Shown here piece after piece: positions 14,450 through 33,191 of a stretch of 47,794 bases of DNA (positions within the stretch are counted from its first letter, which is position 1; every line of letters begins with the position of its first letter). Under the pieces are notes generated by a model that was given only the letters and a program-made list of their open reading frames with translations, was not told where the DNA came from and did no database searches. The position numbers were made by a program, and so were the translations under genes. Source of the stretch: Candidatus Planktophila sp. (GTDB lineage: Bacteria; Actinomycetota; Actinomycetes; Nanopelagicales; Nanopelagicaceae); NCBI GenBank assembly GCA_046070745.1, contig JBJTMX010000044.1, positions 1-47,794 of the forward strand, written 5' to 3'.

Positions 14450-15757
14450 ATGAAACGTAGCTTAGTCGCCATTGGCGCTCTTATTCTCGTAGCCACATCA
14501 CCTCCATCAGCAGATGCTGCCGGTAAAGCGGGCACTGCATGTGCCAAGGTAGGTCAGTCAACAACTGTCGCTGGCACTAAATTCACTTGTGTTAAATCAG
14601 GGAAGAAATTGGTGTGGGATAAGGGCAGCAAAGTTTCTATCGCATCCGCACCTGCTACTCCCGCCAAGATAGATCCACTTGCAGCATGCAAGTTGCCTGT
14701 GGCAGATGGTCGTGGCGACGTGTCAATCGGCGGATGGCCACGCATTGATGAGCGCTCTAAAGTTCTCGGCGATATCAACGTAACTGTCATTCTTGTTGAT
14801 TTCCCTGATGCTCCTGCGAAGCTCACTCCTGCAGAGGCATTTGCAAAGATTTCACCTGCGACTGATACTTTCAAGGAAGTTTCATACGGCAAAGCAAACT
14901 ATGCAATGAAGCCACAGTTGAAGTGGTATCGCATGAGCAAGAAATCATCTGATTACGTTGGGGGTGGTTGGTCGTTTGAGAAGCAGCGTGACTACATGCT
15001 TGAAGCAGCAAAGCTTGCCGATGCAGACGTTGATTTCAGCAAAACAGATAGCTTGATTATTCTTGCAAATCCAGATGCCGAAGGAATGGGTTACTCAGGT
15101 CCTGCATTTTCTGCAATTCGCGGAAATGGCTTGACTCTCGATGGTCACTACATTTCTAATGGAGCAACATCTGCTTACGATTTGAATAACTGGAAATCTA
15201 TCTGGCTCAATCACGAAATTTCACACAGTATGGGGCTTGTTGATCTCTACGCAGCAACCCAAGAGGATCAATCCAATCGCTACGACGGATTCCGATACAC
15301 GGGCGAATTCAGCTATATGGGCTACAGCAGTTTCGATAGCAACTCGCCAAGCCTGCTTGCTTTTGAGCGCTGGAACTTAGGCTGGATTTCAGATGAGCAG
15401 GTTCAATGTATAAGCACTCCTTCAACAACACACACCATTACTCCTGTTGAATTAATCGGTGGCTTGAAAGCTGTCATAGTCCCAATCTCTCGCACAAAGG
15501 CGCTCGTCATAGAATCACGTCGCGCACTTGGAATTGATAGCGCGATGAAGAAGTCAGGCGCCCTTGTATATGTAGTTGATTCTTCAATTCAATCCGGAAT
15601 GGGTCCAGTCAAGGTTTATCCATCTAACGTAAAGACGGATCCTCGCTATCTTGATGCACCACGTGCGAACGGTGAGTCAGTAACCGTTGAAGGCATTACC
15701 GTGAAGGTCACAGCATCCGATGCAAATGGCGACACTATCGAGGTTTCTCGTTCATGA
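14450..15757 (+). CDS. Secreted M6-like (immune inhibitor A-type) metalloprotease
   Basis: Signal peptide; VILVDFPDA, EVSYGK, HEISHSMGLVDLY, FERWNLGWI. Confidence 0.82.
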   Translation: MKRSLVAIGALILVATSPPSADAAGKAGTACAKVGQSTTVAGTKFTCVKSGKKLVWDKGSKVSIASAPATPAKIDPLAACKLPVADGRGDVSIGGWPRIDERSKVLGDINVTVILVDFPDAPAKLTPAEAFAKISPATDTFKEVSYGKANYAMKPQLKWYRMSKKSSDYVGGGWSFEKQRDYMLEAAKLADADVDFSKTDSLIILANPDAEGMGYSGPAFSAIRGNGLTLDGHYISNGATSAYDLNNWKSIWLNHEISHSMGLVDLYAATQEDQSNRYDGFRYTGEFSYMGYSSFDSNSPSLLAFERWNLGWISDEQVQCISTPSTTHTITPVELIGGLKAVIVPISRTKALVIESRRALGIDSAMKKSGALVYVVDSSIQSGMGPVKVYPSNVKTDPRYLDAPRANGESVTVEGITVKVTASDANGDTIEVSRS

Positions 15758-30548: not shown

Positions 30549-30875
30549 CTATCGAATATATGGACGAAGTTCTACCTTGCGATTACAGCAGAGCGAACCT
30601 TCCATTGCTAACTCGTGAGCCATCTCCGAAGTTTCTGCCTCGATAATCCAGAAGCCGCTATAGAACTCTGGGGAGTCGAAGAGTGAACCAGCTGTCACAT
30701 CACCTTTATTGGCGCGGTTATCAATCAATGTTGCAGAAGAGCAAGGTTGGATACCGGCGGCTGTAATCCAGTGGCCGTTACTCTGAAGCTTCTCGTTAAA
30801 TGCATCAATATGGTGCATCTCATCTGGGCTCGCTGGATTGTTCGGGCCATCGATAACAAAAATGATAAATCGCAT
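30549..30875 (-). CDS. YciI/DGPF-like protein
   Basis: IDAFNEKLQSNGHWITAAGI, EFYSGFWIIEA, KVELRP. Confidence 0.82.
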   Translation of the reverse strand: MRFIIFVIDGPNNPASPDEMHHIDAFNEKLQSNGHWITAAGIQPCSSATLIDNRANKGDVTAGSLFDSPEFYSGFWIIEAETSEMAHELAMEGSLCCNRKVELRPYIR

Positions 30876-30920: not shown

Positions 30921-31295
30921 CTATTTTGACTGATAGTAGAAATAGTAACTTCCCTCAACGGGATGACCATCCTCAGAGACGATTCGATACCTTACTTGGT
31001 ACCTACCTTGAGGTATTCCTAACTTTATTTTGCATGATATTCGAGCACCTCCAACTATCGTGCCACCGATATCTACCCGTTTGAGCTTAGAATCTACAAC
31101 CTTAATCTCATTCGGATTCTTATCACCAAAAGTCATGAGATTGCCATCAAATTCAATCCACACAAGCTTTGGCAAACCCTTAACAATCTGGTTACTCAAG
31201 GGCATGCTGGCTGTCAGCTGGGCATGAGCAATCGCCGCTTGAGGCGAAAATGTAAATGCAACTATTGCCATAACTGTGAATACTTTAATTTTCAT
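30921..31295 (-). CDS. copC: CopC family copper-binding protein
   Basis: Signal peptide then AIA|HAQLTASMP (N-terminal His); YRIVSEDGHPVEG. Confidence 0.9.
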   Translation of the reverse strand: MKIKVFTVMAIVAFTFSPQAAIAHAQLTASMPLSNQIVKGLPKLVWIEFDGNLMTFGDKNPNEIKVVDSKLKRVDIGGTIVGGARISCKIKLGIPQGRYQVRYRIVSEDGHPVEGSYYFYYQSK

Positions 31296-31305
31296 TGTGA
31301 ATGTA

Positions 31306-31331
31306 CCCCCAGCCGCGTGAACGACTGGGGG
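31306..31331 (-). other. Intercistronic RNA hairpin between ycnI and copC
   Basis: CCCCCAGUCG-UUCACG-CGGCUGGGGG 10-bp stem (one G-U) on the coding strand, no U tract. Confidence 0.65.
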
Positions 31332-31342
31332 CTGTTCCATTT

Positions 31343-31900
31343 CTACTTTGCTGTGGCCGCAACAGTTGTCACGGTTGGTGCAGGTCCATACTCAGTATCT
31401 TCTGTTGGAGCCATCTTTGATCCATCAGTAATGATCCACTGAAGGTAGAGCGGCTTCTTGCCAGGTGCGAAACAAGTCTGTGTTACTGGAAACGCAATGG
31501 TCTGAGGGGTTGCGCTCCAGGTCAGTTTCAAACCGAAATCGTAGAAAGTTCCATCGTCAATTGCGTGACCCAAGGTTTTGGCAGTCCAAGTGACTGTGTA
31601 ATTGAGTGGGGCATTCTTGGCATCTACTTCGGAACTTGCAACAACCGACGATTTGTATCCGTAGTGAAACTCTGGAGTTGGCTTTCCCGCGGCTGCAGGA
31701 ACTACTACTTTAAAGATACTGGTTGGGTACTTGACGTTGTTATATGTACAGCCATGGCCAAGTGAGAGCCAAAGTCGGCTCGACTGCCCTGCCACAAGCG
31801 TGTAGCCCTTCGATTGCGCTGAAACATGAGCCGATGCAGGCGATACGGATGCAACCAGCGTAATAAGGGCAGCAGAAATTATGAGTAATACTTTTTTCAT
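31343..31900 (-). CDS. ycnI: YcnI/DUF1775 family copper-binding exported protein
   Basis: ASA|HVS N-terminal His, GHGC, VTWTA, FPVTQTC, conserved W, PAPTVT. Confidence 0.85.
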   Translation of the reverse strand: MKKVLLIISAALITLVASVSPASAHVSAQSKGYTLVAGQSSRLWLSLGHGCTYNNVKYPTSIFKVVVPAAAGKPTPEFHYGYKSSVVASSEVDAKNAPLNYTVTWTAKTLGHAIDDGTFYDFGLKLTWSATPQTIAFPVTQTCFAPGKKPLYLQWIITDGSKMAPTEDTEYGPAPTVTTVAATAK

Positions 31901-31930
31901 TGGAAATCCTTTTTTTGAAGTAAAAGTGTA

Positions 31931-32044
31931 TTAGCGGGATTTCTTAGAGAAATACCACCAGGCAGCAATTGCGATAAGAGCTACTGCTGTTTCAAGAATG
32001 TGCGTTGAATGCACATGGAAGAAAGATTCGTGATTCATATTCAT
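31931..32044 (-). CDS. 37-aa His-rich single-TM microprotein (not in ORF track)
   Basis: MNMNHESFFHVHSTHILETAVALIAIAAWWYFSKKSR*; GGGAG RBS; ATGA overlap with the upstream stop. Confidence 0.72.
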   Translation of the reverse strand: MNMNHESFFHVHSTHILETAVALIAIAAWWYFSKKSR

Positions 32045-32538
32045 ACAATCTCCCTGGTAGGTGGACCTCTAAATAGTCGAGATGAATAAAAAAGATGAGA
32101 AATTGACAATCGCGTTTCAACTTGGTTAGCGCAGATATAAAAAACTTTAAGCGAAATGACTCTGAAAATCGACATGAAGAAAACATGAGCAAGTCCTGCG
32201 AGGAACTCCCAGAATCGATCAAAATGAACAACTGTTTTGTACGAAATTATTCCTGCTAATAAATGTGCCCCGCTCATCTGGACATCATTAGATTTGTCCG
32301 CTCCTCCGAGAATAAAGTGACCAGAGCTCTGGAGAATCAAAATCATGAGTGCTAGTTGAGGTCCTTCATGAGAATGATTTCTTGTGAGGAAGAGGCTCGC
32401 ACCGATTAATCCTGACAGTACAAGAAATCGATGAATTTCTATGACTGCACCACCTGAAAGTAGGTGAGCCAAGATTCCTGATAAAAAAAGGACGAGCGAC
32501 TTGGTGAAGTTATCACATTTCGCCGTTACAGGAAGCAT
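32041..32538 (-). CDS. His-bearing membrane protein with C-terminal RGPP motif
   Basis: AHLLSGG, QSSGH and MSGAH in TM segments; ends RLFRGPPTREIV; TATCAT-N6-ATG. Confidence 0.78.
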   Translation of the reverse strand: MLPVTAKCDNFTKSLVLFLSGILAHLLSGGAVIEIHRFLVLSGLIGASLFLTRNHSHEGPQLALMILILQSSGHFILGGADKSNDVQMSGAHLLAGIISYKTVVHFDRFWEFLAGLAHVFFMSIFRVISLKVFYICANQVETRLSISHLFYSSRLFRGPPTREIV

Positions 32539-32597
32539 GGCTTCATGATAGTTCAGTATGAAATGTTCATTGGAGACTTACCTGATAGCGTTTTCAT

Positions 32598-33191
32598 ATG
32601 GCGACACTTGAATCCATGTTGGCATCGCCCGATCAATCCACGCGGCTGAAAGCAGCTCTCGGCGCTGGCACCTATCCACAACCCGAATACATCGAAATTC
32701 TTATCAACCAATGTTCGCACGAGCCTGACTTCTTTGTGCGAGACACACTTTCCTGGGCGCTCTTGATGCACGACCACAACTCTGTAGTAAGTCGCCTCAT
32801 TCCAGAGCTAGCTTCTGCGAACAAGCAAGCAAAGAGTCAAGCAATTCATACTCTCTCAAAAATCGGCGACAAGAGAAATTTCAATCTTATCTCCGATGCG
32901 ATGTTATTTGATCCGGATGATTTGATTGCCTCGACCGCCTGGCGAGCAGCCTCTGTACTAGTTCCGGAAGAAGACAAGCCGGCACTTGTCGCCAAGCTTG
33001 TTACTCAGCTGGGTCGTGGAGACTCAGATCTCCAATTCGCACTCACCCGCTTCCTCTGCGCTATTGGAGAATCTATAGTTGTGCCACTGAAGCAAGCAGC
33101 AAAAAGTAAAGAACCTGACATACAGCAGCAGGCCGAGTTCACCTTGATTCGATATCAAGAGATGAAGCGAGAGCAGAGAGAGAAGCGGTAA
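32598..33191 (+). CDS. HEAT-repeat protein
   Basis: RLKAALGAGT, EPDFFVRDTLSWAL, SQAIHTLSKIGD. Confidence 0.85.
   Translation: MATLESMLASPDQSTRLKAALGAGTYPQPEYIEILINQCSHEPDFFVRDTLSWALLMHDHNSVVSRLIPELASANKQAKSQAIHTLSKIGDKRNFNLISDAMLFDPDDLIASTAWRAASVLVPEEDKPALVAKLVTQLGRGDSDLQFALTRFLCAIGESIVVPLKQAAKSKEPDIQQQAEFTLIRYQEMKREQREKR

Follow-up and report, generated by a model that had tools for sequence, protein, structure and literature searches.

The window, i.e. the complete stretch of 47,794 nucleotides analysed, is contig C44 of a 1.25-Mb genome (48.7 % G+C) of Candidatus Planktophila sp., a member of the same class as Streptomyces. Four genes are arranged on its minus strand in the order leader, microORF, ycnI and copC. 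The leader (32538–32041) encodes a protein of 165 aa with the C-terminal end RLFRGPPTREIV and harbours an RGPP arrest motif (residues 157–160; 32070–32059) five codons ahead of its stop. The Shine-Dalgarno (SD) sequence AGGGAG of the microORF (32055–32050) is located 4–9 nt past the A-site Pro codon, and the microORF itself (32044–31931; 37 aa) overlaps the leader stop in an ATGA. Downstream follow ycnI (31900–31343; DUF1775, Pfam E 1e-6) and copC (31340–30921; CopC, Pfam E 2e-15). Gene order, the RGPP codons with their distance to the stop and the position of AGGGAG, which begins 3 nt downstream of the last Pro codon, agree with a preceding sequence-only reading of this DNA, as does the lack of a CsoR box, for which a pattern scan near the locus returned none. 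The locus is flanked by a divergent HEAT-repeat gene (32598–33191, plus strand) and, downstream of copC, by a YciI-family gene (30549–30875, minus strand; both assigned by Pfam), the latter not being seen in four close relatives. Elsewhere in the genome, a perfect CsoR-type palindrome was detected by pattern scan ahead of genes for a flavoprotein, a CsoR-family repressor and rhodanese-like proteins (G000:C19:13255 and 14996–15337). The flavoprotein presumably resembles sulfide:quinone oxidoreductase, and this region more likely represents a sulfur-sensing than a copper-sensing regulon.

The leader does not match any Pfam or NCBIfam family. A phmmer search yielded 132 matches, and 139 homologous proteins were found in total, 137 of which (including the window's own) were retained after removal of two proteins of 978 and 356 aa. 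The arrest motif and the ligands, on which the sequence-only reading had built its proposal of a His-based copper-sensing leader, proved to be conserved, as did their spacing. R[AG]PP is present within the last 30 residues of 119/137 homologues (RGPP 74, RAPP 45); the other 18 carry TSPP (6), RSPP (4), other xxPP or nothing. This enrichment is not merely a product of the search, since 40 of the 53 matches whose aligned stretch stopped at or before residue 144 still possess the motif. Likewise, R[AG]PP forms the C-terminus in 34/34 class-level leader loci examined, and RGPP occurs in 73/74 Streptomyces ycnI leaders. In the six-frame ORFs of the genome that reach 100 aa, RGPP (2) and RAPP (1) are rare vs. 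AGPP (6) and AAPP (7), and the leader is the only such ORF with RGPP or RAPP not more than 30 residues from its C-terminus.

The predicted metal site (His25, Gln70, His74, Met88 and His92; 32263–32466) was delineated by conservation: His74, Met88 and His92 are kept in 137/137 homologues, His25 in all 133 that cover the position and Gln70 in 134/137. The distance from His92 to Arg157 is fixed (median 66, sd 1.4, n = 115) and amounts to 60–72 in 33/34 class-level loci, while the linker sequence is free to vary. AlphaFold2 modelled the leader (mean pLDDT 85.7) with helices at residues 8–27, 35–51, 59–77 and 85–104, followed by a fifth helix (106–122), the variable linker and RGPP. Four transmembrane segments are indicated by these helices together with hydrophobic peaks and the inside/outside charge skew; the Lys+Arg counts point to an N-in topology with both termini inside. 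Provided that the N-terminus is inside, the ligands are predicted to lie on the outer side, at the ends of helices 1, 3 and 4. Foldseek with the model returned no match at E ≤ 0.001 and the best Z-score in a fold comparison against 48,161 chains was 6.8; both searches are uninformative, because the protein is a helical bundle.

A likely -10 element (TATCAT, 32545–32550) is situated 6 nt ahead of the leader ATG. TAnnnT is conserved exactly 6 nt ahead of the start in 18/30 loci of the genus and at 5–8 nt in 20/30, for which reason the leader transcript is likely leaderless, starting at its ATG. In Actinomycetia, 91/401 genomes match the leader. Consistent with the copper-gene context proposed initially, the gene following the leader in the 34 class-level loci mostly codes for YcnI (19), PCuAC (4), CopC (1) or PepSY (1), next to SigC-like sigma factors (7); in two loci it was not matched to any of the families named.

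Small RAPP/RGPP proteins, mostly transmembrane, have been described as enriched before YcnI genes (Fujiwara et al., EMBO J, Dec 2025, PMC12992588; this and the following as given in its accessible text). Their representative SLIV_18480 of Streptomyces lividans has four helices and, in an AlphaFold3 model, three His and one Met that form a copper site, with Cys40 near Cys127; its arrest was demonstrated in vitro as well as in B. subtilis, with an about tenfold effect of R273A in vivo. Whether arrest controls the next gene is left open in these sections of the article, the downstream reporters having been silent. For comparison, 80 Streptomyces loci were collected, 74 of which could be parsed. 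All 74 have YcnI downstream and conserve His35, Gln80, His84, Met181, His185 and a second Cys, whereas Cys40 is present in 62/74; the motif Arg is located at 241–282. These leaders fit the published residue numbers of SLIV_18480, from which we infer that it belongs to this group.

Direct hhalign comparison of the leader with the Streptomyces group is weak (13 %, E 0.002), and the leader profile alone reaches 30/80 Streptomyces leaders at E < 1e-3. A bridged profile, built via 25 class-level loci and truncated ahead of the RGPP motif, retrieved 80/80 at E ≤ 5.8e-10 (next best 1.1; 4148 segments), and hhalign pairs His25, His74, Met88 and His92 with Streptomyces His35, His84, Met174 and His178. 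Judged by the bridged matches and the ligand alignment, the leader is thus a member of the published transmembrane RGPP/RAPP class and not a new kind of protein, so that the motif, the His/Met set and the spacing of the initially proposed analogue stand but its novelty does not (PMC12992588, accessible text). Shared with SLIV_18480 are the prediction of four membrane helices, a set of three His plus a Met, a C-terminal R[AG]PP, a size under 300 aa and a co-directional copper gene downstream. The present leader differs in length (165 vs. about 280 aa), in lacking a long helix 3–helix 4 loop, in its His-to-Arg spacing (65 vs. about 85) and in being followed by a coupled microORF rather than by ycnI after a long gap. 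The Cys40/Cys127 pair is absent as well, and Cys8 and Cys136 of the leader are not conserved among its homologues. The pair is a Streptomyces-level trait, which by eye is also missing from most leaders in the accessible list of PMC12992588.

Two further copper-related arrest systems, both of the DUF2946 type, are known from proteobacteria; the features cited are those in the available parts of the reports. CruR of Bordetella pertussis (PMC9426467) is likewise a uORF with a conserved metal site at a fixed spacing to a RAPP-type motif, heads copper-acquisition genes and has a demonstrated Rho-dependent output; it is, however, non-homologous, and its CXXC motif, secretion and long intergenic gap are absent here. 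CutF of Rhodobacter capsulatus (10.1101/2025.02.05.636593) also senses extracytoplasmic copper across the membrane through its nascent chain, as predicted for the present leader. In contrast, it is Cys-based with a signal peptide, and its copper-induced stalling, which opens a stem-loop over cutO, is of opposite polarity to the model favoured here. CruR and CutF are analogues of opposite copper polarity and non-homologous to the leader. In agreement with the non-homology assumed at the outset, CXXC is absent from the leader sequence and DUF2946 was matched (Pfam/NCBIfam) neither in the leader nor in 133 family members.

The microORF product combines a His-rich N-terminus with one predicted membrane helix and does not match any Pfam or NCBIfam family. 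It had been noticed in the sequence-only reading and is present as placed there, but its origin had escaped notice. An alignment (hhalign) of 8 microproteins with 12 CopC tails (98.7 %, E 2.6e-16) identifies it, by homology, as the detached His-rich C-terminal anchor of related CopC proteins, an element for which Pfam holds no family. Common to both are F-x-x-x-H-x-x-H, a hydrophobic helix, a Trp and a basic tail, the anchor of CopC in related small-genome actinobacteria differing in that here it is a free protein ahead of ycnI while the local CopC is tail-less. Downstream of the leader, the 30 genus loci have microORF-ycnI-copC (5), ycnI-copC directly (11), PCuAC (13) or the contig end (1); CopC possesses the His-rich membrane tail in all 11 direct loci and lacks it in all 5 microORF loci.

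Among 401 genomes of the order, 40 contain a match to the microORF: 18 clean stand-alone copies spread over 5 genera, one damaged copy and 21 matches in long frames, 14 of which were inspected and all found to be C-terminal tails. No genome among the 40 carries both the stand-alone and the fused form. The leader is located directly upstream of 17/18 stand-alone microORFs, and of these 18 clusters, 14 contain a tail-less CopC and 2 a long CopC fusion, CopC not being seen in the remaining 2. The microORF-bearing genomes are kin rather than independent, and these counts therefore overstate the number of events; in a tree of 50 leaders, the arrangement needs three changes. Synonymous exceed non-synonymous differences in 66/66 pairs (pS > pN) of 12 microORF copies, marking the microORF by its sequence as a real gene under purifying selection. 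It was either born by CopC fission or is itself the source of the CopC fusion. A description of the microprotein or the CopC tail was not found in the open-licence PMC and bioRxiv literature. As far as this literature goes, the putatively release-coupled microprotein is the new part of the system; the leader itself is of a known kind.

Several loci deviate in arrangement. A lipoprotein-like gene instead of ycnI follows the microORF in L190–L192, L194 and L195 (SCO1/SenC in the two scanned), the leader end and microORF start appear to be deleted in L193 (G766), the microORF is kept without a detected leader in L196 (G801), and it stands ahead of the leader in the near-identical contigs L150/L151. 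A possible hairpin over the last codons of the microORF, followed by a U-rich tract (31932–31960), was not called by the terminator scan; hairpins at this position surpass synonymous recodings (p < 0.05) in 5/18 microORFs, all close kin, vs. 1/13 fused tails, and a terminator-like role is a weak lead. Pairing of the microORF end with the ycnI SD (GAAATCC/GGATTTC) was rejected, being confined to the window and absent in four close relatives.

The expected N-terminal His of YcnI and CopC was recovered together with the Pfam domains. YcnI has a signal peptide (ASA-H), an N-terminal His, its own SD (AAGGA) and no membrane anchor; CopC shows AIA-H with an N-terminal His after the signal peptide, a DGH motif and no His-rich anchor. 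Both score above the Pfam cut-off, CopC below that of NCBIfam's CopC. The start of copC is more likely at 31295 than at 31340. An intergenic hairpin over its likely SD (31303–31334; -24.9 kcal/mol) is conserved in 7 close loci, with compensatory changes in 8/13 pairs; its possible functions are coupling of copC with ycnI or mRNA stabilisation. Two additional CopC genes, with plain membrane anchors, were observed in the genome (G000:C110:425–2778 and C82:17777–18280), one of which adjoins a gene for a 612-aa CopD protein (C110). The previously suspected absence of CopD thus holds for the locus only and not for the genome.

A stalled ribosome covers about 10 nt beyond the A site. The sequence-only reading placed the microORF SD within this footprint, which is correct here but not a general trait: in 16 microORF loci, the start varies from 8 to 50 nt past the last Pro (≤ 20 nt in 9) and is 28–50 nt away, i.e. 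at or beyond the footprint edge, in five. It lies between -11 and +3 nt from the leader stop in 15/16, and the conserved trait is start-stop coupling rather than an SD under the footprint. In naked RNA, the microORF ribosome site is predicted to be closed (9.6 kcal/mol here). By folding prediction, the ycnI site is not opened by the stall here (4.4 vs. 3.3 kcal/mol) nor in the other 15 microORF loci. In all 15 PCuAC-led or TSPP loci (13 and 2, respectively), in contrast, the stall cuts the predicted opening cost by at least 4 kcal/mol, mostly beyond shuffled controls. Folding misses some outputs, since among 9 ycnI-led relatives without microORF a stall-ON signal was obtained in only one. The closed microORF start and the ycnI access unchanged by the stall suggest that the direct output is most likely translation of the microORF upon release. 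For ycnI and copC, three possibilities are to be considered: that they follow microORF translation, so that stalling turns both down, is the leading one but falls short of an even chance; stall-ON control is unlikely, and independence from the arrest slightly more so.

In the 13 PCuAC-led loci (L009–L011, L013, L014, L016, L018–L022, L024 and L026), pairing of the next SD with the RAPP codons and the bases flanking them is predicted, stall opening amounting to 4–14 kcal/mol; in 10/13, not more than 2/40 shuffles reach the real value. A subgroup of leaders (L012, L017; P0092, P0108, P0116, P0118, P0131 and P0138) keeps the ligands but ends in QYW[TS]TSPP instead of R[AG]PP, possibly a non-Arg arrest motif by its sequence; the two loci folded display a predicted stall-ON RNA switch (0/40 controls). 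In L028–L033, the stretch after RAPP, inside the stall footprint, is by eye complementary to a stretch about 35 nt past the stop in six of six loci, with base changes that preserve pairing; folding showed no effect on the ycnI site.

In other RAPP peptides, stalling is known to involve a Pro-Pro pair in the P and A sites. Taken together, it appears probable that the His/Met four-helix RGPP leader keeps its own ribosome stalled until copper binds, the overlapping microORF being translated only after release. Translation of a leaderless mRNA, judged by its conserved upstream element, would begin at the leader ATG, and the four helices would insert while the ribosome is still attached, bringing His25, His74, Met88 and His92 to the outer side, as predicted. 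The ribosome would then stall with Pro159 and Pro160 occupying the P and A sites, respectively, and binding of copper to the tethered bundle would pull the 65-residue linker and free the stall. The stalled ribosome would hide the microORF SD and, once released, would terminate and re-initiate on the overlapping ATG: the anatomy is seen in the sequence, and the behaviour would quite probably follow. From the microORF, ycnI and copC would be served by ribosome hand-over across the 30-nt gap and by protection from polarity. That copper drives the release is somewhat better than an even proposition, by analogy with CruR and given the fixed spacing and the cargo of the relatives. Release rather than stalling is preferred as the copper-triggered event, because the PCuAC- and SigC-led relatives would then be induced by starvation, which agrees with CruR and with SigC of M. 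tuberculosis, reported to prevent copper starvation (PMC7924339). Against the model, the TSPP loci without R[AG]PP still show a predicted RNA switch, the microORF start is at or beyond the footprint edge in five of 16 loci, the microORF occurs without a detected leader (G801) or ahead of it (L150/L151), and it is difficult to see why the sign should be inverted when the cargo is unchanged. The silent downstream reporters of PMC12992588 and the copper-induced stalling of CutF likewise speak against it.

An unchanged sign relative to PCuAC- and SigC-led relatives is what a CruR-like scheme with two outcomes offers, which we regard as possible though rather unlikely: under low copper, the stall would shield the transcript from Rho and ycnI-copC would be read from the open ycnI SD, while after release the microprotein alone would be made as a copper buffer or shut-off. 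The CruR model itself (PMC9426467, available part) is a precedent, the ycnI site is cheap to open in every state (2.3–4.4 kcal/mol), and YcnI/CopC-type proteins are reported, in the accessible literature, to serve copper acquisition in B. subtilis. On the other hand, a marked C-over-G stretch, as for a Rho site, was not found in the leader, the microORF would also be covered once the stall is released, namely by the re-initiating ribosome, and the long untranslated gaps of CruR loci, as far as described in that part, are absent here. Clearly less probable still is that what the stall senses is membrane insertion (Sec/YidC pulling) or a metal other than copper, or that copper strengthens the stall. 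The arrest of ApcA, ApdA and ApdP does respond to protein-localisation force. Moreover, CutF stalls in copper according to its accessible report, and the copper site of family members is in the accessible text of PMC12992588 a prediction only. The invariant His/His/Met/His set and the near-exclusive copper cargo, however, argue against insertion or another metal, and with a copper-strengthened stall the SigC-like and PCuAC genes would be switched on by copper, at odds with the starvation role of M. tuberculosis SigC as given in the available text.

The sequence-only reading had also considered the leader as the missing copper permease, with ycnI driven by its own promoter TACACT. The cluster does lack CopD, and the leader does comprise four helices with His and Met; yet it has no CopD domain (Pfam), and the idea is not needed because CopD is encoded elsewhere in the genome, on contig C110, adjoining another CopC. 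In addition, the ligands are all predicted on the same side, a strong arrest motif would keep the protein yield low, and family members also lead sigma factors. TACACT is not among the promoter-scan matches, which do not exceed those in shuffles, and is not kept in four close relatives. A main role as permease replacing CopD is therefore very improbable. The long CopC fusions in G709, G801 and L150 match CopC and not CopD at E ≤ 1e-5 and were therefore not counted against the permease idea.

Returning to copper-triggered release, the broadest version is put forward only tentatively: small-genome actinobacteria may have rewired a copper-gated arrest switch by splitting off the His-rich CopC anchor and turning it into a microprotein gene beneath the stall site, the expression of which is coupled to release. 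The output would thereby be inverted (stall = off), or the switch would have two opposing outputs, among them a copper-binding membrane peptide of 37 residues that is produced only with copper. For the question posed for this class, namely if arrest governs the downstream genes and in what way (PMC12992588, accessible text), the locus provides a direct read-out, as a gene starts within the leader stop codon. Natural relatives combine the same sensor with a predicted opposite RNA logic. While the leader itself is ordinary by now, the locus adds an unannotated, conserved His-rich microprotein.

In 7 of 9 fetched loci from Streptomyces-type genomes (L060–L063, L065–L067), a leader of the same family, with RGPP and the His/Met set, precedes a gene for an ECF sigma factor. 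The best NCBIfam matches of these sigma factors are SigC/PRK12535, below cut-off, and judged by sequence the leader could represent the copper-sensing route of SigC-like sigma factors.
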